Shown: piece after piece, positions 2,612 to 59,312 of the stretch
How the letters are laid out: each line of letters starts with the position of its first letter
Position numbering within the stretch: position 1 is the first letter of the stretch
Source: an uncultured Gammaproteobacteria bacterium
Lineage (GTDB): Bacteria; Patescibacteriota; Microgenomatia; CAZETR01; Amesbacteraceae
Reading direction: 5' to 3'
DNA: 64,000 nucleotides
Assembly (NCBI GenBank): GCA_964633995.1
Contig: CAZWKN010000004.1
Span: forward strand, 1,260 to 65,259
Position numbers and translations under genes: made by a program
The notes under the pieces: model-generated
The model's input: only the letters and a program-made list of their open reading frames with translations
Told to the model about the DNA's origin: nothing
Databases searched by the model: none

Positions 2612-3285
2612 CTCCAGTAGTCGAATTTAAAAACGTCAGTCGAGTGTATGGAGATCCTGCAAACGAGGACAGTTTGGTGACTGCGTTAAACAACGTGTCG
2701 TTCAAGATTGAAAAAGGAGAGTTTGTGGCTATTACTGGGCCTTCGGGATCGGGGAAATCAACACTTTTGCACCTGATAGGTCTATTAGATCGGCAAAGCA
2801 GTGGGGAGATATTAGTTGATGGGACGAATACCAAAAAATTGAATGATAATAAATTGGCGAAACTGCGAAATGAAAAAATAGGATTTGTGTTCCAACAATT
2901 TAACCTACTTCGGGCAACTCCGGCTATTACAAATGTGGAGTTGCCAATGATCTATAGGCGAGTTGTTGGAAACGTAAGACGAGAAAAAGCAAAAAAAGAG
3001 TTAACCATGGTAGGACTTGGTGGAAGACTTATGAACAAACCGTCTCAGCTGTCTGGTGGGCAGCAGCAAAGAGTGGCGATTGCCAGGGCACTGGTTACTG
3101 ACCCCTCTTTGCTATTGGCTGATGAGCCGACGGGAAATTTGGATAGCAAAACCGGTCTAGAAATATTGGAACTTTTTGAAGATTTGCACAAAAAGGGAGT
3201 GACGATAGTCCTTGTGACTCACGACCCCAACATTGCCAAGCGGGCCAAAAGGCAAATTGTGATTGTAGATGGGGGGGTGAAATAA
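2608..3285 (+). CDS. ABC transporter ATP-binding protein (MacB/LolD type)
   Basis: Walker A GPSGSGKST, signature LSGGQQQRVAIARAL, Walker B LLLADEPTGNLD, H-loop VTHD. Confidence 0.9.
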   Translation: MTPVVEFKNVSRVYGDPANEDSLVTALNNVSFKIEKGEFVAITGPSGSGKSTLLHLIGLLDRQSSGEILVDGTNTKKLNDNKLAKLRNEKIGFVFQQFNLLRATPAITNVELPMIYRRVVGNVRREKAKKELTMVGLGGRLMNKPSQLSGGQQQRVAIARALVTDPSLLLADEPTGNLDSKTGLEILELFEDLHKKGVTIVLVTHDPNIAKRAKRQIVIVDGGVK

Positions 3286-4485
3286 ATGGACACAATTGAA
3301 TTATTTAAATCGGCCACCAGGGCGATAAGAACTAATAAGACCAGATCGTTTTTGACGACGTTGGGAATTATTATTGGTGTGGCGTCGGTAATTTTGTTGG
3401 TATCTATCGGGTCTGGACTGCAAAGTTTTGTGACCAAAGAGTTTGAGTCTTTGGGGTCGAACATATTGTTTATTTCACCCGGTAAGGTAAGTTTTTCCGG
3501 TGGTCCGCCTCAAAACGTAGAAGCCAAATTTGATTTCGAGGACGTAAAAAATATCAGCAATATGGGAGGGCCTATTGTGAAAGCAGCGGGAATGATTGCT
3601 AAGGGATCGACTATCAAATATAAATCTAAGTCGTATTACGGTAACATAGCCGGGACAAACGAATCTTATTTAGAGTATGGGAATGTCAAAATAGAGAGTG
3701 GAAAATTTTTTGGTAAAAACGATGTGGAGAGAAGTGCTCTGGTGGCGGTAATAGGGCACAAAATTTATACTGAGTTATTTGCCTCGGGGGAAAACGCCGT
3801 TGGTAAGCAAATTAGTGTTGTTGGAGCCAAGTTGACAGTGATAGGGGTTTTGCAGGAAAAGGGTGGGGGGTTGGGGGGTGCATCTGATGATAATTCGTAT
3901 GTGGTAATGCCGGTGACGACGGTAAGTAAAATCACCGGGATTAAAAAACCGGCTGCTGTGATGGTAAGGACGCAAACCGCCGATGATACTGGAAGGGCGG
4001 CCAGTATGATCAAGAAATATTTCTATAGAAGAGACTTGACCGATGACGACTTTACGATCATGGAGCCTAAAGAATTGTTGAGTTCGATAAATCAATTTTT
4101 GGGAGTAGTGACTGGGGCGCTGTCGGGAATTGCTGCGATTTCTTTGGTAGTGGGCGGGATTGGGATTGCTAATATTATGTTGGTATCAGTAACCGAAAGA
4201 ACAAGAGAGATTGGACTTCGTAAAGCATTGGGGGCGACTAATGCTGATATTTTGAGACAATTTTTGATTGAATCGGTTTTGTTGTCGGTGTTGGGAGGAG
4301 GGATTGGAATTGGAATTGGATGGGGGTTCTCGTTGCTTCTTAAAAAGTTTATTGAGACGTCTGTGACTTCCCAGTCTGTAATTATGGCGTTTGGTATATC
4401 TGCAATTGTTGGGGTGTTGTCAGGAATTTTACCCGCTTTGCGGGCGTCGAGACTCAATCCAATTGAGGCTTTGAGGTGGGAGTAA
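3286..4485 (+). CDS. ABC transporter permease (FtsX/MacB-like, 4 TM with large periplasmic domain)
   Basis: MacB_PCD-like periplasmic domain and FtsX C-terminal TM bundle (REIGLRKALGA motif). Adjacent to the ATPase. Confidence 0.85.
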   Translation: MDTIELFKSATRAIRTNKTRSFLTTLGIIIGVASVILLVSIGSGLQSFVTKEFESLGSNILFISPGKVSFSGGPPQNVEAKFDFEDVKNISNMGGPIVKAAGMIAKGSTIKYKSKSYYGNIAGTNESYLEYGNVKIESGKFFGKNDVERSALVAVIGHKIYTELFASGENAVGKQISVVGAKLTVIGVLQEKGGGLGGASDDNSYVVMPVTTVSKITGIKKPAAVMVRTQTADDTGRAASMIKKYFYRRDLTDDDFTIMEPKELLSSINQFLGVVTGALSGIAAISLVVGGIGIANIMLVSVTERTREIGLRKALGATNADILRQFLIESVLLSVLGGGIGIGIGWGFSLLLKKFIETSVTSQSVIMAFGISAIVGVLSGILPALRASRLNPIEALRWE

Positions 4486-5242
4486 CTGGTTTGAGTTTGA
4501 GAGCAAAATAGAGACATTGGGTGGAACTTTGGGCACTGTGGTTTTTGCCAGGGGGAAGGACAAGTGGACGAATAGAAAGAAAGGGAACATCGTAGCCTTT
4601 TGGGTAAACATCAAGGGTGATGGCCTGGTTGTTTCTAGTCCGTAATGCATATTTTGCGTCGACTAAGGTGTTTATGGCAGTTTGCCAATGTAGATAGGCG
4701 AGTTCAGGATTGCCTTCTATTGAATACGCTGCGTTGCTGTGAAAGGGAGAATCATCTGGTGATTTGGGGTCTAGGGTCCACAGGGGGAAAATGATTTCAG
4801 TTACTTGAGGGTTTTCGACATGGGGTGAGACGGCTGAATTTTCACCCAATAATTGTAAGCCGGAAGTAATAATTTCTAAGTCTTGGTCGTGTATGTTAAC
4901 AACGGTTTTTGAAGGTTGTTGATCTTCGAGCCATAAGACTTGGCCTTGAAATTTGACAGGGTTAATGGCATTGAGATCCAGGTTGGAATTTGGGACAGGA
5001 GAAAAAAAGACAGATTCGTTTTGGCGAAGTATGGTATCCCTGCGGTCAGCCTCAATTCGGTCGGGCCAGGGGACACGGTGGACGGCCCAGGAATCGTAAG
5101 TTACGATATCCCTTCTTAGCTCTTCGGGCAAATCCGGCCAAGAGACTCTCTTGGCTACGAGATCGTTGGCCGCTCTGTAATTGGAGTGGGTAGACATTCG
5201 ATGAACAGAATCAAAAAACGATTGGGTGAATAATTCAGGCAT
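4454..5242 (-). CDS. hypothetical protein (262 aa)
   Basis: Intact ORF with no recognisable motif. Its 3' end converges on, and overlaps, the permease end by about 30 nt. Confidence 0.45.
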   Translation of the reverse strand: MPELFTQSFFDSVHRMSTHSNYRAANDLVAKRVSWPDLPEELRRDIVTYDSWAVHRVPWPDRIEADRRDTILRQNESVFFSPVPNSNLDLNAINPVKFQGQVLWLEDQQPSKTVVNIHDQDLEIITSGLQLLGENSAVSPHVENPQVTEIIFPLWTLDPKSPDDSPFHSNAAYSIEGNPELAYLHWQTAINTLVDAKYALRTRNNQAITLDVYPKGYDVPFLSIRPLVLPPGKNHSAQSSTQCLYFALKLKPVTPTSKPQLD

Positions 5243-5279
5243 AGGCGGATATTAAAGTATAAGCGTTATACTGTCAAAC

Positions 5280-5308
5280 TTGACGGACGTTGCCGACAGT
5301 GTTAGACT
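5280..5308 (+). promoter_or_regulatory. candidate sigma70 promoter (TTGACG-17-TAGACT) for the TrmB gene, near-leaderless
   Basis: The -35/-10 spacing is 17 bp. The -10 ends 7 nt before ATG 5315. Confidence 0.3.
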
Positions 5309-5314
5309 AAAGCT

Positions 5315-6172
5315 ATGGATATGATAGAAAAGGTATTGGGAGAGCTGGGGTTATCGGAAAATGAGATAAAGATTTATCGGGCTGCTGTCAGGCATGAGGA
5401 AACGTCACCATATGCTCTATCTAGGGAGACAAATATTCCTAGGACGACTGTGTACGAGGCTATAATGAATTTGGCCCTTAAGGGCTTGGTGACATTGGTT
5501 AAGAGTGATGGTTTTACCAAACAGCAGACAAGAATTGTGGCTAAGAACCCATCTACACTTAGGGAGATCATACGGAATAGTAGGGAGAGATTGACCAGGT
5601 TGGAGGTAGATGTTGTGCAAATATTACCGGATTTGAAGGCGGAATATTTAAAAACTGTGCCTAATGCCCAGGTGAGGTTTTTTTCAGGAATTGAGGGGGC
5701 GGGCGAGGTGTATGGGCGGGTGTATTCGGGCAGGTTGGGTGTATCGGTAGTGGGATGGGATTCTATGATGCCGATGGACAGTTTTGGAAGCAAAAAAATT
5801 AACAAATGGGTGGATCAGGATTTGGATGCTCGAAAATCTGAGAAAAGCATAGTCTTGCTGAATGATTGGACTAAGCATGTAATTGGATACCAGTATGGGA
5901 GGGATAAGAGGTATTTGGATAAAGAATTTAGGTATATTGACGATTCAGGGTGTGTGTTTAACCAAGATATCTATGTGATAGGTGGGTCTGTTTTTGTGGT
6001 AAACGGTTTTAAAGACGAGGCGTGGGGAATGGTAATAAATAGCGAATTATTCGCTCAAACAATGAAATCTATGTTTGAGGTGATGTGGCGGGTGGCTAGG
6101 CCAATCACTGAAGAAATGGTAAAAAGTTGGGGTGAAAACGAGTATTTAAATGAGGAAAGACGAAGGAAATGA
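5315..6172 (+). CDS. TrmB-family transcriptional regulator (N-terminal wHTH)
   Basis: LGLSENEIKIYRAAVRHEETSPYALSRETNIPRTTVYEAIMNLALKGLV is typical of the TrmB HTH. Confidence 0.7.
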   Translation: MDMIEKVLGELGLSENEIKIYRAAVRHEETSPYALSRETNIPRTTVYEAIMNLALKGLVTLVKSDGFTKQQTRIVAKNPSTLREIIRNSRERLTRLEVDVVQILPDLKAEYLKTVPNAQVRFFSGIEGAGEVYGRVYSGRLGVSVVGWDSMMPMDSFGSKKINKWVDQDLDARKSEKSIVLLNDWTKHVIGYQYGRDKRYLDKEFRYIDDSGCVFNQDIYVIGGSVFVVNGFKDEAWGMVINSELFAQTMKSMFEVMWRVARPITEEMVKSWGENEYLNEERRRK

Positions 6173-9501: not shown

Positions 9502-9550
<49 letters not shown>

Positions 9551-9668
9551 AGTAGAATCGTGGAATTCTTGAGGGGGTCTGACCTCAGTACGAGAGGACC
9601 AGGTTGGAGGTATCACTGGTGTGCCGGTTGTGACGTCAGTTGCAGCGCCGGGTAGCTAAATACCTACG

Positions 9669-35320: not shown

Positions 35321-35345
35321 ATCCTTGTGGCTGGATAAAAATTAA

Positions 35346-35375
35346 ACCCCCCGATGTACATCGGGGGGTTTTGTG
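35346..35375 (+). terminator. rho-independent terminator
   Basis: ccccccgatgtacatcgggggg hairpin followed by TTTTGT. Confidence 0.6.
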
Positions 35376-36028: not shown

Positions 36029-38095
36029 TTATGGAGTGGTTGTAGGGGCTGGAGTGGTGGATGGGGCCGGGGTGGTGGAAGTTTGAGGGCCGAGCTCTGT
36101 TGGGAGTTTAAGAGGAGGATTTACTTTTGGACTGGTTTGAACTTTGGGTGATTCCAATTGGGTTTTCGCAGGAGCTGCTGCAGGAGTTACTTCCTCTTGG
36201 CCAATTTTGGTTGCCAGCTCTTCCAGCTCCCCCTGAGCTTTGGTGTAGTCAGCGCTGGTTTTGTCGACCAGACTAACAACTTTTTGCATGGCTAAGTAGG
36301 CATTTTTATAGTCAGATTTTTCTTTAAAAGACGCTGCGAGGTTGTAGTAGCCATTGGCATAGTCTGGTTTTAGGTCGATTGATTGTTGGAAGAGTCTGGT
36401 GGCCTCGTCAAAGCTTTTTTGGGAGAAGAGGACTCCACCTAATGCAACTCTTAAGGCTGGATTAATGGGGTCCAGGGCGATTGCCTGGCGGTAGGAGGCC
36501 ACGGTCCACTCGTCTGCACCTTGAGCGATATTGATGAGGTTTCTATAGACATTAGCTAAGTTTTCGACGTTGGTTACTTTTTGAGGATTTAGGGCTACGG
36601 CATTTTTGGCTTCGCGGATCGATTGTTGGACGAGTTGGGAGATGGTGTTTCGTTCGTCGTTGGTTAAGTCTTTTTTGGCAGCGAGAGTGTTGGCCAAAAG
36701 AAGGTTGGTTTGAGAATAGGCAATACGATATGTGTCGCGATTGGGATTAATGCGCATGGCAGAGAGAAGAGTGTCGTACGTTTTCTTGCCGTCGTTGTTG
36801 GCAGCAAAAACCAACGCTTGCTGAAACACATATTCTCCGGTGTAGGCAGAAGCTGTGTAGTAGAGACTGGGTAAGGCAAGAGCTACTGCCATTACAAAAG
36901 CAATCCATGGCAATATGGGGGATTTGTTTCCGGAATCGGTGGCCGCCACGATATCAATATTGGCTTCGTGGATAAGCGATGAACCTAACAATTTGAAAGC
37001 AGATACTGCCAAAACAAGCAACGTAAAGGTGATGGTTAGTGTAGAAAGATTTGTTGGCAAGAAAAGTTGGCTTATGAAAAATAGCGAAGCAGTGGCTGTG
37101 GTTGATAAAGCAATGGCGTGAAGTGGTGATTCAGAGCTGGTTTTAAACGCCTTAAGGAGCAAATTTAATGCTTTGACGGCCAAAATTACGTAAGCTGCCG
37201 TCCCCAAGACTCCTACTGTGGCCAAGAGTTGGAGGTAGTAATTTGAGGCACTAGTAAATCTGACTGCCCAATTAGGAGACATGTTGTAAGCCAAAGGACG
37301 GAATTGGCTGAAATCAGTCATGAATGTGGACGGGCCAGTTCCCAAGATGGGTGATTGTTTTAGTACTTCAAGAGCAATGGCCCAGCTGGTGGCCTGGGAC
37401 AGGAAAATTGGTTTGTTTACGGAGTCTGTTTTAAAGATACGGTAACCAGTAAGGCCTGCCCCAATTACGCTGGCAAACAGGGCAATGGAAAGAAGTAGTG
37501 TTTTGAGTGAGTTGGATTTTTCTTTGACGATAAGGATAATTAAAAAGACTGAAAATCCGGCAAGTAAAACAAGAGTTGTCAGGGGATTTCCTGTTGGAGT
37601 CCAGATTTGCGATTTAAGAAAAGCGGGTAGTGGTATGAGCTGTATTACCCCAGATCCCCAAAGGACTGCAGTAATAGCCAAAAGCGAAAGTGAAACGATA
37701 AAAGTGTTAATGAGACCTTCGATGTGTTTTCGAGTACGAATGAGGTTGATTGCTGAAAAAAAGAAGAAGGAAATTGCCAATATTGTTCCGGTCTGACCGG
37801 GTTCAAAAAAAGCGTCTATGCGGTTGGGGGATTTTATAAATGTAGAAAGAGCCCAGGTAAGAGCCAGGCCAAGTATTGGAAGTCCAAAAGGACTACGTGT
37901 AAGGCGGACTTGTTTGTCGACAACAAACGATCCGGTTAATGAAAGAGTTGCGATTATGGTGGCGATAAACAGAAGAGCTTGTTTGTTGTATTCATAGAAC
38001 TCTGAAGTAATGGGTAGGAAGAATACTGGAAGTAGTAAGACTGTCGCGACAATGCTAAAGAAGCCAAGTTTTTGTAGAGCTGTAGAAAGTTTCAT
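36029..38095 (-). CDS. O-antigen-ligase-like (Wzy_C) polytopic membrane protein with C-terminal TPR repeats and Pro/Thr tail
   Basis: About 10 TM helices with a large loop, then TPR-like repeats (YYNLAASFKEKSDYKNA). Confidence 0.65.
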   Translation of the reverse strand: MKLSTALQKLGFFSIVATVLLLPVFFLPITSEFYEYNKQALLFIATIIATLSLTGSFVVDKQVRLTRSPFGLPILGLALTWALSTFIKSPNRIDAFFEPGQTGTILAISFFFFSAINLIRTRKHIEGLINTFIVSLSLLAITAVLWGSGVIQLIPLPAFLKSQIWTPTGNPLTTLVLLAGFSVFLIILIVKEKSNSLKTLLLSIALFASVIGAGLTGYRIFKTDSVNKPIFLSQATSWAIALEVLKQSPILGTGPSTFMTDFSQFRPLAYNMSPNWAVRFTSASNYYLQLLATVGVLGTAAYVILAVKALNLLLKAFKTSSESPLHAIALSTTATASLFFISQLFLPTNLSTLTITFTLLVLAVSAFKLLGSSLIHEANIDIVAATDSGNKSPILPWIAFVMAVALALPSLYYTASAYTGEYVFQQALVFAANNDGKKTYDTLLSAMRINPNRDTYRIAYSQTNLLLANTLAAKKDLTNDERNTISQLVQQSIREAKNAVALNPQKVTNVENLANVYRNLINIAQGADEWTVASYRQAIALDPINPALRVALGGVLFSQKSFDEATRLFQQSIDLKPDYANGYYNLAASFKEKSDYKNAYLAMQKVVSLVDKTSADYTKAQGELEELATKIGQEEVTPAAAPAKTQLESPKVQTSPKVNPPLKLPTELGPQTSTTPAPSTTPAPTTTP

Positions 38096-38191
38096 TGATT
38101 ATATTAAATAGTCATTTGGTTCACTGGTCAATGGGGAGTTTGGAATGGGTCTGACCTATTGCGGAAGAGGTCTGACCTGTGTCATGATGTA

Positions 38192-38872
38192 ATTATGCCG
38201 GCCAAGTTTAGGGTGAAGTCTAATAATGAGCACACGCTATACCATATATATAATAGGGGCGTGGATGGGAGGGATGTATTTGTTGATGAGAACGATTACA
38301 CCGAATTTTTGGACACATTAAAAAAATATGTGACTAAGGTGGAAATAAAAACCGTTCCGGGTTTTAAGACATTGAAACCGTCAATGGCAGAATACATGCA
38401 GAAGATGAATTTGTCGGATCAGCTGGACATGGTAGCATATTGTATGATGTCCAATCATATTCATCTGGTGATTTATCAGAAACAATTGGACGCTATTGCC
38501 AAGCTGATGAGGAGAGTGATGACTGGGTATGGGATGTATTTTAATAAGAAATACAAGCGAAGAGGACCTTTGTGGGAGGGGGTATATAGGGCTGTGGAAA
38601 TATCGTCAGGGGAACAGCTTGTTTGTCTTACTAAATATATTCACTTAAACCCGGTAACTCGGACGGTAAGAAGGTTTGGCCCGGTCGAAACGATAACCGG
38701 TTCGTCGCCTGAGAGTTATACGTATTCAAGTTTTGGTACATATATAGGTCTAAATAATGATAAATGGGTAAATATTAAATTCGTAAATATGAATTCCGAT
38801 GAATATAAAAGATATGTGTCTGAGCACGACAATGCCTTGGAAGAGAAGCTCAAAGAGGTGAAGATCGATTAA
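38192..38872 (+). CDS. IS200-like HUH (Y1) transposase-family protein, paralog A
   Basis: YHIYNRG N-motif, HUH motif SNHIHLV, catalytic-Tyr region GVYRAVEI, and IHLNP. Paralog of the gene at 55993-56685. Confidence 0.65.
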   Translation: MMPAKFRVKSNNEHTLYHIYNRGVDGRDVFVDENDYTEFLDTLKKYVTKVEIKTVPGFKTLKPSMAEYMQKMNLSDQLDMVAYCMMSNHIHLVIYQKQLDAIAKLMRRVMTGYGMYFNKKYKRRGPLWEGVYRAVEISSGEQLVCLTKYIHLNPVTRTVRRFGPVETITGSSPESYTYSSFGTYIGLNNDKWVNIKFVNMNSDEYKRYVSEHDNALEEKLKEVKID

Positions 38873-54725: not shown

Positions 54726-55967
54726 ATGGGAAAGACTGATGTGATTACATTGCCTCCTGGGACCAAGGTGCCTAACCATATTGCGATGATACTGGATGGA
54801 AACAGGCGGTGGGCGCGGGCGAGAGGATTAAAACCTTGGGAAGGGCACGCAGCGGGGTATCAAGCAATTAAGGAGTTGTCTGAGGCCACAAGAATGCTGG
54901 GAGTACATACGTTTACGGTTTGGGCGTGGTCTACGGAGAATTGGGAGAGGTCAGAAGTGGAAGTAAGTGAGATTATGAAATTGTTGAGGATGGGTTTGGA
55001 CGAGATGGAACCCGATTTGCACAGAGAGAAGATAAGGTTGGTGCATTTGGGGCGAAAGGATAGGTTGCCGAAAGATGCTCTCGAGCATATTGCTAGGCTT
55101 GAGGCGGAGACGAAACAATACAACGACTCGCATGTATTTAACATTGCTTTGGATTATGGTGGTAGGGATGAGCTGGTGAGGGCGGTTAAACAAGTTATCA
55201 CTGATCAGGTATCAGTTGATCAGTTGGATGTGAAAGTGTTTGAGAAATATTTGGATACGTGTGATCAACCTTATCCCAATGTAGATTTGTTTATCAGGAC
55301 CAGCGGAGAGCAGAGAACATCGGGACTTTTGCCTTGGCAGATGGACTATGCAGAATATTATTTTGAACAGGACCATTTACCGGATTTTAGTCCGGAAAAG
55401 TTGCGGGAAGCGATAATGGATTTTTCTAGGCGCAGGAGGCGGTTTGGGGCTAATGACAAAGAGGAGCATTTAAGGTTCAACCCCAAAATAGTGGCTGATT
55501 TAGAGGTTAAATGGAGACATGCTTTGGCGGGGGGAGAGACGGAGAGATTAAGAGATTTAGTGATTAAGTATGTGGGTGAGCAGTATGGATTGTCGAAGGA
55601 GCTGGCGTATGATGCTGGAGTAAATTTGGCCAAGGCGTTGATGTACAGGCGACAGGAAAATTGGGTAGAGGCTAAAAAAGCACTGGTGGGGTTGTATGGA
55701 ATTGTACAAAAAACGTTGAAATTGGCATTTGAGCCGGAGGTAATTGCTAATATTGAAGTGAATTTGTGGAACCCTCCTTTGCGGGACGCTTCGGAAGGGC
55801 AAGAGGGGCGGTGGCAAATGTATTTGGCAGAGAAATACAGGATTTCTAAGTTGCAGGCGGCTAAATCAGCTCATTTGGCGGTGTTGGCGGAGCGGGAGGT
55901 TGATCCCAAAAAACAAAAAGGATATTTGGAAATGTTTTACGAAGCACTGAAAGAAAGAGTGGCCTAG
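54726..55967 (+). CDS. uppS: isoprenyl transferase (undecaprenyl-diphosphate synthase family) with roughly 170-aa C-terminal extension
   Basis: HIAMILDGNRRWA, FTVWAWSTENWER, and RTSGEQRTSGLLPWQ (the RxSG...W of cis-prenyltransferases). Confidence 0.85.
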   Translation: MGKTDVITLPPGTKVPNHIAMILDGNRRWARARGLKPWEGHAAGYQAIKELSEATRMLGVHTFTVWAWSTENWERSEVEVSEIMKLLRMGLDEMEPDLHREKIRLVHLGRKDRLPKDALEHIARLEAETKQYNDSHVFNIALDYGGRDELVRAVKQVITDQVSVDQLDVKVFEKYLDTCDQPYPNVDLFIRTSGEQRTSGLLPWQMDYAEYYFEQDHLPDFSPEKLREAIMDFSRRRRRFGANDKEEHLRFNPKIVADLEVKWRHALAGGETERLRDLVIKYVGEQYGLSKELAYDAGVNLAKALMYRRQENWVEAKKALVGLYGIVQKTLKLAFEPEVIANIEVNLWNPPLRDASEGQEGRWQMYLAEKYRISKLQAAKSAHLAVLAEREVDPKKQKGYLEMFYEALKERVA

Positions 55968-55974
55968 GGATACT

Positions 55975-56725
55975 CCTTTAAGGACAGTTCTTTCAAAGAT
56001 CGAGGGTGAGAGATGATATTTGGGAGAGGGAGGGTTCGTCGATTTGCGAGTTTTCGACAAAACTAGAGTAGGAATTGAATCCTGATTTGGCAAAATAAGA
56101 TAAAATTGCTTGTGGTTTGAGCCAATCTTGTTTGATAAAGCCGAGATAGTTTCGATAAGATGATGGTTGGGGACACTCTTGTAAGGACTGTCCTTTTTGG
56201 AAAGGATTGAGGTGAATATAGCGAGATAGGTGGAGCAGTTGTTGTTCTGAATCTACAAGGACCGCCTTGTAAGCATCCTGAAAAAGTGGTCCTACTCTGT
56301 GGTTGTTTCTATGGTTAAAATACTGGACGTAGCGGGTGCAAAGAGAGCGCATAAACATTTCTATAGTTCTGGGAACGGTTTGTTTGACTAAAAGATGGAA
56401 ATGATTGGGCATTAGGCAATAGGCTAGTAAATCGAGTTGATTGGAAAAATTGTTGAGTCGAATTAGTTTTTTGGCATCTGCCTTTTGATAGGGAGTAGAT
56501 GTGGGGTTGGTTAATACCTGAAGGAGTTTGTCTAAGTCTTTGGGGGAAAGATATTCTTTGAGATATGAGAGGAAAACGGACTCATCCTGTTTGTCTGAAA
56601 AAATTGCTCGCTTTTCGACACCGCGGTTGTAGATGTGGTAGTAGCCGTTTTCGTGATACTCTTTGATCTTGTTCTTGGCGGGCACAAATTTAGGATACTC
56701 TTGAAAGGACTGTCCTTTCAAGAGT
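55975..56725 (-). mobile_element. putative IS200/IS605-like element (HUH transposase gene bounded by palindromic hairpins)
   Basis: GAAAGGACTGTCCTTTC perfect palindrome at 56703-56719, just upstream of the gene. A related palindrome lies at 56183-56196 and a degenerate copy (AAGGACAGTTCTTT) at 55981-55994, just past the stop. Overall size about 750 bp. Confidence 0.45.
55993..56685 (-). CDS. IS200-like HUH (Y1) transposase-family protein, paralog B
   Basis: YYHIYNRGV, HUH as PNHFHLL, YKAV, and IHLNP. Start proposed at GTG 56683-56685, equivalent to MPAK of paralog A. The annotated 368-aa ORF has a 140-aa low-complexity N-terminus overlapping the neighbouring gene. Confidence 0.6.
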   Translation of the reverse strand: MPAKNKIKEYHENGYYHIYNRGVEKRAIFSDKQDESVFLSYLKEYLSPKDLDKLLQVLTNPTSTPYQKADAKKLIRLNNFSNQLDLLAYCLMPNHFHLLVKQTVPRTIEMFMRSLCTRYVQYFNHRNNHRVGPLFQDAYKAVLVDSEQQLLHLSRYIHLNPFQKGQSLQECPQPSSYRNYLGFIKQDWLKPQAILSYFAKSGFNSYSSFVENSQIDEPSLSQISSLTLDL

Positions 56726-56742
56726 TGGAATTGTGATAGAAT

Positions 56743-57792
56743 TTGGGGATGGCGAGTGATTTGGGGCAGAAGGCAAAGAAAACGTTGGAAGCGTTTGTGC
56801 CGGAGATAGATAAGCGAATTGCTGAGTATTTTGACGAAGAAATAAAAAAAGATTTCGGGTTTAATGAGAAACAGAAAAAGTTGGATAGGGAGATTTTGGA
56901 ACACGCAAAAGAATACATTCTGCGTCCGACGAAGAGAATCAGAAGTTCGTTTGTGCGTTATGGAGCAAGGTTGGGTGGAGAAGAATGTGATTGGGGTGCT
57001 GCTGTGGGGGTGGAGTTGGTACATGCAGGGCTTTTGATGCATGACGATTTTATGGATAACGATAGTTTTAGGCGGGGAGGGTTGACAACCCATGAACATT
57101 TTAAAAAAGTAATGAATGATTCACACCTGGGGGATGCTATGGCGGTTACGGTGGGAGATGCAATGTTGTTTATGGGCTTAGAGCTTATTTCTAATAGCGA
57201 CAACAGACCGGCAATGAAACAGATGTTGAGAGGGTTGGCAAATACTGGTTATGGCCAGGCTTACGATGTTGGTTTGGAAGCACTTAAGGAATGGACAGAA
57301 GACGATGTGATCGTTTTGCACAAGGCAAAGACGGCGATTTATACGTATGAGAATCCGTTGTTTATTGGGGCGCATTTGGCCGGTTTATCAAAAGAGGTTT
57401 TTGAAATTTTGCATGAATATTCTATGGATGGTGGGGTGGCATTTCAGTTGCAAGATGATATTTTGGGAGTGTATGGGAGTCCAGAGAAGACGGGAAAGAG
57501 TGCAGATTCGGATCTAAAACAGGGAAAATGTACCCTGATGGTGCTTAAGGCGTGGGATTGTCCAGAAGTGCATAAAGTTTGGGGTGATCAAAATGCAACG
57601 AGAGAGGATCTGGATGCGGCTAAAAAAGCCATATTGGACTGCGGGGCGTATGAATATAATAAAAAATTGGCCAGAGAGTATGCGGCAAAAGCGGCTAGGA
57701 CGGCAGAGAAATTGCGTAAATTTGAGTTAAATTCAGAAGCGATTGATTTCATCCAGGGTATTGCTGAGTATATGGTGGAGAGAGAAGTATAA
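56743..57792 (+). CDS. trans-polyprenyl diphosphate synthase (FPP/GGPP synthase family)
   Basis: First Asp-rich motif LLMHDDFMDNDSFRRG and second motif LQDDILG. Confidence 0.85.
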   Translation: MGMASDLGQKAKKTLEAFVPEIDKRIAEYFDEEIKKDFGFNEKQKKLDREILEHAKEYILRPTKRIRSSFVRYGARLGGEECDWGAAVGVELVHAGLLMHDDFMDNDSFRRGGLTTHEHFKKVMNDSHLGDAMAVTVGDAMLFMGLELISNSDNRPAMKQMLRGLANTGYGQAYDVGLEALKEWTEDDVIVLHKAKTAIYTYENPLFIGAHLAGLSKEVFEILHEYSMDGGVAFQLQDDILGVYGSPEKTGKSADSDLKQGKCTLMVLKAWDCPEVHKVWGDQNATREDLDAAKKAILDCGAYEYNKKLAREYAAKAARTAEKLRKFELNSEAIDFIQGIAEYMVEREV

Positions 57793-57876: not shown

Positions 57877-58599
57877 ATGAACTGCCCGGGTTGTGGAGGA
57901 GAGCTGAATCCCATATCGGTTATGGGGTTTGATGATTCATATAGGTGTAGGAAATGTGGTGGTTTTTGGTTGGAATCTTGGATGGTTAATCAATTGCCCG
58001 AAAAAGATTTGGATCATGTGGTTCCGCTCAAAGTAGAAAATGCCCCCGATGGGGAAGGATTGTGTCCGGTGGATAAGGTAAGAATGACAGCGCTTGCGGG
58101 AGAAAATATTCCGACCGGACTTGTAATTGAAAAATGTGAGAAGTGTGGGTGGTGGTGGTTTCCAAAAGATAGTCTATTTGGCTTTAAGCAGGCATATGAC
58201 CTGAAGAAGAACTATCTGAAAGTATGGGGAAAGAAATCCGAGCAGGCGATGTTTGTATTGCCTGCACTGTTTACACTGGTTTTGGTAATCGGGCTTTCGG
58301 TGGGAGTGATAAAAGTAAAGAACAGGCAAAATACTGACGTGTCGGCGTCTTCGGAAGTGACGGGATTTGGGTCTGTTTATTTGGGAGCAGGCAGGACGAG
58401 TGTGGTGTTTCGGTCGAGTGGAAAAGTGTCGCAAGTATATTATAAAAAGGCTGGCGAGATAGACTGGAACAGTGCGGGGGTATCGGAAGACAATGGTTTA
58501 TATACTGCTGATTTAAAGTGGTTGGATTCTGATACGAACTACGTAGTTAAGGTATTGGAAAAGGAGTTTAAATTTAAAACCGGGAGGCAGGATTTATGA
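57877..58599 (+). CDS. Zn-ribbon/TM/extracytoplasmic-domain protein, paralog 1
   Basis: CPGCGG...CRKCGG and CP...CEKCGWWW ribbons, a single TM, and a 90-aa C-terminal domain. Confidence 0.55.
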   Translation: MNCPGCGGELNPISVMGFDDSYRCRKCGGFWLESWMVNQLPEKDLDHVVPLKVENAPDGEGLCPVDKVRMTALAGENIPTGLVIEKCEKCGWWWFPKDSLFGFKQAYDLKKNYLKVWGKKSEQAMFVLPALFTLVLVIGLSVGVIKVKNRQNTDVSASSEVTGFGSVYLGAGRTSVVFRSSGKVSQVYYKKAGEIDWNSAGVSEDNGLYTADLKWLDSDTNYVVKVLEKEFKFKTGRQDL

Positions 58600-59312
58600 A
58601 ATGTCCGGGATGTGGAGGACCTTTGAATGAAGTTTCAATTGCCGGTTTTGATCGGTCTTTTAGGTGTTATACCTGTGGGGGATTTTGGACTCAATCGTGG
58701 GTGGTAAATCGGATGTCGCCACGGTCTATGGACAGATGGATGCCGGTTATTGTAGATGCCGATCTTTTAAAAATGGGAACCATGGTGTGTCCGACAGATT
58801 TGACGCCGCTAACCCGGTTTACTGGTGAAAGCATGCCAACTAATTTGCCGGTCGAAAAATGTGATAAGTGTGGGTGGTGGTGGTGGCCGGAGGATACGCT
58901 GTTTAGATATAAGCCGGCACAAGAAGCGAAGATTAATTATTTTAAATTGTGGGGGAAAGCCGCAGACGCGACAGCCCTAATACTGCCAGTTATGAGTGTG
59001 GTTTTGTTGATTGTGGGGGCGGCCATAGGGGTAGGGTTGGTAAAAGTGCGACAAGAATCGAGCATAAACGCTTCGGGTTACGCGAGGGCTTTTTTTGCGA
59101 CGTATTTGGGGAATGGACGGGAGTTTATTAGTTTCCAGTCGATGCAAAAAATTGACAGTGTGGAATATCAGGCGAAAGGGTTGGCTTATTGGACTAAAAT
59201 GAATGTGTCTTCTGAAAATGGGGTATATACACTTGAGATAAAGAATCTAAAAGAGGGGGAGAGGTACAGCGTGAGAATTTTGGGGAAAGAATTCGAATTT
59301 GTGGCTAGGTAG
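58596..59312 (+). CDS. Zn-ribbon/TM/extracytoplasmic-domain protein, paralog 2
   Basis: Same architecture (CPGCGG...CYTCGG, CDKCGWWWW). ATGA overlap with paralog 1. Confidence 0.55.
   Translation: MKCPGCGGPLNEVSIAGFDRSFRCYTCGGFWTQSWVVNRMSPRSMDRWMPVIVDADLLKMGTMVCPTDLTPLTRFTGESMPTNLPVEKCDKCGWWWWPEDTLFRYKPAQEAKINYFKLWGKAADATALILPVMSVVLLIVGAAIGVGLVKVRQESSINASGYARAFFATYLGNGREFISFQSMQKIDSVEYQAKGLAYWTKMNVSSENGVYTLEIKNLKEGERYSVRILGKEFEFVAR

Follow-up and report, generated by a model that had tools for sequence, protein, structure and literature searches.

Which kind of element separates two genes for cell wall lipids, uppS and the ispA-like polyprenyl synthase gene, in a member of the Amesbacteraceae, and is it a mobile one? 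The question is raised by a 64,000-nt stretch of contig CAZWKN010000004.1 (assembly GCA_964633995.1; the whole stretch is hereafter called the window), where a unit of ~760 bp at this junction holds a gene for a Y1 HUH nuclease, gene B, together with several copies of one palindromic motif. A preliminary description of the locus, made from the sequence, regarded the unit as IS200-like and hedged that its protein might be a domesticated, RAYT-like form. The hedge has turned out to be the better half of that interpretation. With moderate confidence, we read gene B as a class 2 Y1 HUH single-strand DNA nuclease of the RAYT/TnpA-REP type, which carries the subclass 2.1 (TIRYT) motif signature and lies in a minimal REPtron-like unit with its own cognate hairpin copies.

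IS200 elements are one-gene units of ~700 bp that have same-strand hairpins near both ends, a perfect palindrome upstream, and structure around the translation start. The RAYT (TnpA-REP) nucleases, named for the repetitive extragenic palindromes (REPs) that accompany them, and the REPtrons that they form are reportedly exemplified by Escherichia coli YafM (PDB 4ER8), with work said to be that of Nunvar in 2010, Ton-Hoang and Messing in 2012, and Corneloup in 2021. Quentin et al. 2018 (PMC6006769) distinguish the RAYT-like proteins, their class 2, by the motif Y---NP, and IS200 by Y---Q. The TnpA proteins of IS200/IS605 (subclass 1.1) have DH[VI]H and Y[IV]ENQ in a core-only protein of ~150 aa. 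Subclass 2.1 is defined there by NH[YF]H, FQ, Y[IV]HLNP, and an SS tail in ~238 aa (Table 1 of that paper); it is reported to lack REP-like sequences and to correspond to the TIRYTs, which have long terminal inverted repeats. The same paper describes in-frame REPs within the tnpA-REP genes of subclass 2.4. Some species that have no REP families carry REPtron-like units (Di Nocera et al. 2013, PMC3733652), and some RAYT groups evolve more slowly than housekeeping genes (PMC5581495).

RESULTS

Motif signature and predicted structure of gene B

Gene B is an open reading frame (ORF) on the minus strand between the TAG of uppS and the ATG of the polyprenyl synthase gene. Because all homologs in the alignment begin with MP[AS][KR] (MP[AS][KR]N) and gene B has MPAK at this point, we take the GTG at 56685 as the start; this start and the placement on the minus strand correct the preliminary description. 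Pfam Y1_Tnp matches gene B at 1e-10 and also matches paralog A, the second HUH gene of the window. When gene B was aligned with ISDra2 TnpA, its NHFH lined up with the HuH motif and its Y156 with the catalytic tyrosine, both in register. H95, H97, and Y156 were without variation in 24 homologs; the His and Tyr residues that had been proposed as catalytic are thus intact.

An AlphaFold (AF2) model built on the homolog alignment had a predicted local distance difference test (pLDDT) score of 88 and a predicted template modeling (pTM) score of 0.86. Its top PDB match was 4ER8 (E value of 9e-5), a complex of E. coli TnpA-REP with a REP hairpin, and the IS200, IS608, and ISDra2 transposases ranked below this entry. 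In the model, the C-terminal ~70 aa are helical, and the linker between the Tyr helix and this domain is a loop. A C-terminal helix-turn-helix (HTH) of the Bac_DnaA_C, HTH_23, or HTH_28 type was not detected in gene B, for which Pfam gave Y1_Tnp alone; the fold of the tail was not searched separately.

The gene B signature consists of N94-HFH, L134-F-Q, YIHLNP (from Y156), and a P-S175-S176-Y tail in a protein of 230 aa, and the class 2 mark Y---NP is present as Y156-I-H-L-N-P. Motifs and SS tail are those of subclass 2.1, the length being 230 aa versus a median of ~238 aa; this subclass was assigned by eye against Table 1 of PMC6006769 and not by a subclass hidden Markov model. Gene B shares with IS200/IS605 TnpA the Y1 HUH fold, the His-hydrophobic-His arrangement, and one catalytic Tyr. 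However, IS200 has DH[VI]H, Y---Q, and a 150-aa core, whereas gene B has NHFH, YIHLNP, and 230 aa with a C-terminal helical domain. As judged from its motifs and from the modeled structure, gene B is placed in class 2 and is not an IS200.

The close named matches to gene B come from Candidatus Amesbacteria and other Patescibacteria, and the best available relatives have 73% identity in uppS and 87% in the HUH protein. The wider family is large: 18,207 clusters at 50% identity were collected at E ≤ 1e-3, 6,662 at ≤ 1e-10, and 199 at ≤ 1e-30. In five representatives (P0171, P0212, P0229, P0242, and P0259; ~390 to 450 aa), the Y1 domain is followed by a predicted membrane helix and a bacterial SH3_3 domain, which is odd for a transposase-like nuclease.

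Copies of one motif upstream of, inside, and downstream of gene B

A repeat search of the window revealed a ~29-nt motif in three direct copies at 55968-55996, 56171-56199, and 56693-56721, with 72 to 83% identity. The perfect 17-nt palindrome that had been described upstream of the gene, GAAAGGACTGTCCTTTC at 56703-56719, is present and forms the core of a longer, 29-nt palindrome at 56697-56725 (14-nt arms and one central base). Only two palindromes with 14-nt arms occur in the 64 kb, and mononucleotide shuffles max out at 11-nt arms. The other of the two, a 28-nt perfect palindrome at 35344-35371 (AAACCCCCCGATGTACATCGGGGGGTTT), may be a bidirectional terminator. As single-stranded DNA, the upstream motif copy folds strongly (-12.7 kcal/mol, z -7.0). 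The related palindrome reported inside the 3′ coding region was recovered as a second exact GGACTGTCC at 56185-56193, and so was the degenerate copy past the stop: GAACTGTCC (minus strand, 55982-55990) starts 3 nt after the gene B stop, and a further half-unit, AAGGAGTATCCCT, lies 17 nt past it.

In the close clade, the motif is made of two small adjacent palindromes, AAGGAC-N-GTCCTT and then AAGGAGTATCCTT; in the clade of the window, it consists of arrayed AAGGA-N3-TCCTT half-site pairs that are spaced by 14 nt. The 3′ copy is still intact in the relatives L003, L021, and L022. At the edge of the internal copy, GGGGACAC (56169-56176) fits exactly GGGGWSAS, the consensus of the TIRYT terminal inverted repeats. 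The flank copies read AGGGATAC and TAGGATAC, so the exact match is found only at the internal copy.

Two palindromes, both taken to be internal, had been described as encoding one peptide, KGQS[F/L]QE[Y/C]P. The peptide is indeed in frame at the upstream and the internal copy, the former reading KGQSFQEYP, but the upstream copy lies before the GTG start and is hence probably untranslated. Among seven gene B orthologs, codon pairs for the same amino acid differ in a fraction of 0.14 at residues 163 to 171 versus 0.56 gene-wide. This collapse of synonymous variation at the internal copy shows that the DNA itself is constrained there. The shared peptide is a by-product of a repeat that exists at the DNA level.

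A locus-specific hairpin brackets the gene across the family

A flank-internal-flank layout with a locus-specific sequence is the rule of a large gene family in the candidate phyla radiation (CPR). The survey of the family drew on 80 further metagenome loci at 40 to 67% identity; 71 loci were usable for the flank test, and 72 entered the linker test. Upstream and downstream flanks share a palindrome in 62 of 71 loci, compared to 8 of 284 cross-locus controls. The same sequence is also found in frame in the variable linker that follows YIHxNP in 26 to 28 of 72 loci (above the 99th percentile of controls), a proportion that rises to about half at a looser threshold; control comparisons across loci score 7.6 on average, versus 20 to 34 within loci. 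The palindromes of different loci, such as CAAGGCGAGGCCTTG, CCTGCAGGGCCAGGCCCTGCAGG, and GAGGTCGGACCTC, are not related to one another, and neither are the peptides that they encode at the same spot.

Copies belonging to one locus agree over 15 to 34 nt, and the similarity to the flanks ends a few bases past the hairpin. The commonest palindrome shape, found in most loci, is RRGG-N5-CCYY, with a center that is often flipped from copy to copy. Where an internal copy is lacking, many loci carry a doublet of inverted hairpins on either side, which is a REPIN-like arrangement. Eight loci have an extra in-frame copy near residue 50; both intragenic positions correspond to loops in the gene B model. 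In the locus L067, four additional copies of the locus hairpin (ACAGGTCGGACCTGT) lie within 135 nt upstream of the gene (283-383) and make up a small array.

Two loci are informative about the unit as a whole. L042 carries two complete hairpin-gene-hairpin units located 2 kb apart (2950-5790), with 79% amino acid and ~84% nucleotide identity. In L059, the gene stops exactly at the internal hairpin and has no C-terminal domain. In total, ~370 kb of related loci yielded just one extra copy. The two L042 units bracket a 1.2-kb segment with two unrelated ORFs, a composite-like arrangement. In nine cluster representatives (P0127, P0133, P0144, P0150, P0157, P0169, P0225, P0267, and P0269), the match to the query ends at residue ~160 to 165, that is, at the hairpin linker, beyond which the proteins end or diverge. 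These ends could be contig ends, frameshifts, or real hairpin breakpoints.

An internal copy that arose as a simple REP insertion was considered but could not be established, the linker being just ~3 aa longer where such a copy is present (15 versus 12 aa).

The unit is an old insertion in the uppS-ispA junction

Pfam identified the neighbors of the unit as Prenyltransf and polyprenyl_synt genes, as had been proposed. The unit is bounded by hairpin copies: It begins right after the uppS stop and ends just before a TGATAG...ATG spacer. Empty sites, which the preliminary description had suggested looking for in related genomes, exist: In seven loci (L011 to L013 and the four closest uppS relatives in the database, the latter at 70 to 73% identity), uppS abuts ispA, and at one of these sites, the two genes overlap as ATGA. 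The gene B unit is an insertion in this junction. Two of the empty sites, L101 and L103, also have TGATAG followed by the ispA ATG; the spacer thus belongs to the host sequence and lies outside the unit.

Three relatives keep the order polyprenyl synthase, HUH gene, uppS and have all three motif copies. Their HUH proteins are 83 to 87% identical to gene B, and their uppS products are 56 to 66% identical. A more distant relative (68% identity) is placed between IleRS and FtsZ, also with three motif copies. For the HUH genes of the window, L001, and L003, the number of synonymous substitutions per synonymous site (dS) is 0.8 to 1.8, and the ratio of nonsynonymous to synonymous change (dN/dS) is 0.05 to 0.09; uppS gives a higher dN/dS, 0.12 to 0.15. 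Recent horizontal spread was considered as an explanation for the gap between the HUH and uppS identities and was rejected, since dS is near saturation and the gap is due to the low dN/dS. GC skew is -0.38 in gene B and -0.35 in its flanks. The dS values, the low dN/dS, and a gene skew that is the same as that of the flanks show that the insertion is old, not recent, and it has been kept under strong purifying selection. Across the window, each 8-kb segment has a plus-strand GC skew between +0.22 and +0.40, a strand asymmetry that is unusual in both strength and uniformity.

In neighbor-joining trees, the occupied loci do not form a clade for uppS (0 to 1% bootstrap) and do so weakly for ispA (47%). 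Since they are not one clade, occupancy is patchy. A single ancestral insertion had been considered on the basis of the shared junction TGTGATAGAAT...ATG. This idea is weakened, since the closest empty sites carry TGATAG and ATG as well. The uppS and ispA trees disagree.

Paralog A and other features of the window

Paralog A is the only paralog of gene B in the 64 kb. The preliminary description was right about its existence and about the doubled palindrome upstream of it; the start, however, is the ATG at 38195, not 38192. The upstream palindromes, GGTCTGACC, lie at 38148-38156 and 38169-38177. No matching palindrome was found downstream of paralog A, which makes it one of nine exceptions to the flank rule. 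The RFGPVxT linker is conserved at the protein level in the sub-branch of paralog A, and also in L094 and L097, and contains no internal hairpin. The paralog A palindrome, GGTCNGACC, has four matches in the window versus 0.42 expected; the two that lie elsewhere, one in rRNA-like sequence and one in a neighboring gene, could not be tied to paralog A. Inside the neighboring gene of 688 aa, ~350 nt from the upstream pair, a 13-nt palindrome with a GGTCTGACC core (CCGGTCTGACCGG, 37788-37800) could be a third paralog A copy or a chance occurrence.

The features of both loci are listed in the table. The uppS product has 413 aa, with the Prenyltransf domain at residues 22 to 241, and its C-terminal extension of ~170 aa is kept in Amesbacteria and Woesebacteria relatives. 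Beyond the synthase gene are two tandem paralogous genes with a 4-nt overlap (57877-58599 and 58596-59312), both starting with M.CPGCGG...C..CGGFW, which is zinc-ribbon-like, and having a hydrophobic stretch; a gene similar to this pair comes after the synthase gene in L001. At 9541-9619, AGTACGAGAGGACC (the sarcin-ricin loop) and the lack of ORFs suggest a 23S rRNA gene.

Table. Coordinates of gene B, paralog A, their motif copies, and the genes and spacer at the borders of the insertion (window numbering).
Feature	Position	Strand	Description	Basis
Gene B, Y1 HUH nuclease	55993..56685	minus	230 aa; GTG start, TGA stop 55993-55995	Pfam Y1_Tnp, homolog alignment
Gene B active site			N94-H95-F96-H97 (HuH) and Y156 (catalytic Tyr in YIHLNP)	Alignment
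Upstream motif copy	56693..56725	minus	Ends 7 nt before GTG; includes perfect 29-nt palindrome 56697-56725	
Internal in-frame motif copy	56171..56199	minus	Core palindrome 56183-56195; encodes QKGQSLQECP, residues 163-172, in linker	
3′ motif copy	55968..55996	minus	Overlaps gene B stop; begins 1 nt past uppS TAG; hairpin decayed	
Paralog A, second Y1 HUH gene	38195..38872	+	ATG start; 36% identical to gene B; RFGPVxT-type linker without hairpin	
Two direct copies of (G)GGTCTGACCT upstream of paralog A	38147..38178	+	Fold z -5.1	
uppS (undecaprenyl-diphosphate synthase)	54726..55967	+	Left border of insertion	Pfam Prenyltransf 4e-67
Spacer with extended -10-like TGATAGAAT (56734-42), 6 nt before ispA ATG (56749)	56726..56751	+	Right border	
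Polyprenyl synthase (ispA-like)	56749..57792	+	N-terminus MASDLGQKAKK aligns with relatives	Pfam polyprenyl_synt 1e-45

DISCUSSION

Relation to known systems

The likeness of gene B to RAYT/TnpA-REP rests on the Y1 HUH fold, the Y---NP motif, and the best structural match; on its being a low-copy, slowly evolving gene that is kept in place; and on the family being bracketed by its own cognate hairpins, which covary with the protein. Unlike RAYTs, gene B is a protein of 230 aa with a 70-aa helical C-terminal domain in a CPR host. Subclass 2.1 is matched by the motif signature and by the occurrence of about two divergent copies per genome, but the DnaA_C/HTH tail was not detected by Pfam. As in subclass 2.4 (Bertels group 4), a cognate hairpin is found both in the flanks and in frame inside the gene, in surface loops. 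However, the copies of the gene B family come after the Y motif (residues ~160 to 172) and, in eight relatives, also before HuH (~50); gene B has no WQ or YIxNNP signature; and the REPs of subclass 2.4 have GT[AG]G feet. A search of the accessible literature for RAYTs in CPR or Patescibacteria returned nothing relevant. As far as we can tell, the kind of unit is known, but the combination of a protein of 2.1 type, short undispersed end hairpins, in-frame copies located after the Tyr helix, and a CPR-wide spread has not been described.

Several observations weigh against the assignment of the unit to the RAYT/TnpA-REP type with a 2.1 signature and cognate hairpins. First, the hairpins are not dispersed: Neither GGACTGTCC (0 mismatches) nor the 13-mer was found in the 64-kb window away from gene B, and only two distant copies were detected in ~119 kb of related-locus flanks. 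The unit thus differs from RAYT/TnpA-REP in that no dispersed REP or REPIN population was found, and as far as testable in these sequences, the REP-associated property is absent. Second, the GT[AG]G guide tetranucleotide is absent from the foot of the gene B palindrome, where the 5′ bases read TTCCA (gene strand) and AGGAT (opposite strand). Third, with the NCBIfam model NF047646 (REP_Tyr_transpos), gene B scores 47.1 bits and paralog A 41.9 bits, under the equivalog cutoff of 80 bits. Fourth, subclass 2.1 is reported to have long terminal inverted repeats and no REP-like hairpins, whereas gene B has short direct hairpin repeats at its ends and inside. The internal copy folds weakly (-5.0 kcal/mol, z -2.1), the 3′ copy of the window no longer folds (z -0.06), and the small difference in linker length belongs here as well, as does the orientation of the HUH genes, which shows no bias relative to flank GC skew (26 of 56, p 0.69), unlike in IS200/IS605. 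Last, the promoter-like hexamers that overlap the upstream palindrome, TTGAAA (56721-56716) and, after 18 nt, TATCCT (56697-56692), are consensus matches only. The gene B start codon is 6 nt downstream of the -10-like TATCCT, and both hexamers are found at the equivalent position in L001, L003, and L004.

Alternative explanations

The position of these hexamers bears on the possibility that the protein is fully domesticated and that the palindromes are expression signals unrelated to cleavage or mobility, the upstream one being a duplex operator and the downstream one a terminator or insulator between convergent genes. Such an arrangement would agree with an upstream palindrome placed between -35-like and -10-like hexamers, with a 3′ copy located between the convergent stops of uppS and gene B, and with strong purifying selection and preserved synteny, while half-site pairs at 14-nt spacing would suit a dimeric binder of duplex DNA. 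We nevertheless consider it unlikely, since it leaves unexplained the in-frame copies at two loops and the constraint at the DNA level, the duplication of whole units together with their hairpins, the truncation of the L059 gene at the hairpin, and the invariant HUH/Tyr active site. A search for an intrinsic terminator at the 3′ copy was negative, and no T run follows this copy.

Could the unit be an autonomous and currently mobile insertion sequence of the IS200/IS605 type, as the preliminary description proposed? In this case, the hairpins would be subterminal ends, and TnpA would excise the 760-bp unit as a single-stranded circle and reinsert it. The unit is compact, and direct, same-strand copies of the hairpin lie at both ends, as in IS200/IS605 (56693-56725 and 55968-55996; the 3′ one has decayed here). 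Empty sites and patchy occupancy, related genes in unrelated contexts, and the duplication of the whole unit in L042 would also be expected. Yet the class 2 signature and the best structural match to TnpA-REP argue otherwise, and IS200 typically has many near-identical copies, whereas the window, 64 kb of the genome, holds a sole paralog at 36% identity and the related loci just the one extra copy. The syntenic orthologs are at near-saturated dS with a low dN/dS, the skew of the gene has equilibrated with that of its flanks, the 3′ hairpin has decayed, tnpB is absent, and the strand bias relative to replication is lacking. The IS200-like interpretation is therefore not upheld, and we regard current mobility of this type as quite improbable.

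That the likeness of the three copies is incidental, with the internal palindrome reflecting a conserved peptide and the flank copies being chance matches or remnants of an older gene, is hardly credible even though KGQSFQEYP can be read in frame from the upstream copy and K-G-x-S-L is frequent among close-clade members, because, at one place, neither the encoded peptides nor the palindromes behind them are related between loci, each locus matching its own flanks far above the cross-locus controls in both score and frequency, because synonymous sites dip at the internal copy, and because the flank similarity ends a few bases past the hairpin, so that the flanks are not gene remnants.

Proposed course of events

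We return to the reading that we favor, in which gene B is a RAYT/TnpA-REP-like nuclease with cognate hairpins. On this reading, the unit entered the uppS-ispA junction long ago and has since been inherited in place under strong purifying selection. By analogy with TnpA-REP and with the TnpA proteins of IS608 and ISDra2, the protein may recognize the hairpin in single-stranded DNA and nick beside it through Y156, with a metal held by H95 and H97, such that the ends can be rejoined. Over evolutionary time, the hairpin-gene-hairpin unit would undergo copying or loss as a whole; the hairpin copies would stay alike within a locus and diverge between loci; and the gene would occasionally be cut at its internal copy. 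Binding, nicking, and rejoining would account both for the copying and loss of units and for the within-locus homogeneity of the hairpins. Because its 3′ hairpin has decayed, the gene B copy of the window is probably immobile. Folding of the upstream hairpin, or its binding by the protein, between the -35-like and -10-like hexamers probably throttles gene B expression; the palindrome could thus gate transcription, possibly of a leaderless mRNA.

A more speculative proposal, which we put forward as possible rather than probable, is that the in-frame hairpins are not passengers but functional sites through which the nuclease acts on the gene that encodes it: It would gate the expression of this gene, homogenize its recognition sites, and, within the linker, cut or exchange the C-terminal domain. 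The leads for this last action are the L059 truncation at the hairpin and the cluster representatives that end at ~160 to 165. The family might then be a self-contained module in which a gene carries its own substrate, and it could be the minimal state that precedes REP/RAYT expansion, widespread in bacteria with almost no other mobile DNA.

Significance

The RAYT-type nucleases provide the best example of a bacterial transposase that has been domesticated, and they have been studied almost only in Proteobacteria, alongside hundreds of dispersed REPs. The CPR version is stripped down to one gene and two to four hairpin copies, one of them in the reading frame and under selection at the DNA level. 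It extends the hairpin association to proteins with the signature of subclass 2.1, a subclass reported without hairpins, and the palindromes could serve to annotate such units in CPR genomes. Hairpin and gene clearly covary across about 70 loci, and the family offers a small, tractable system for studying how the enzyme acts on its hairpin and why the pair is kept.

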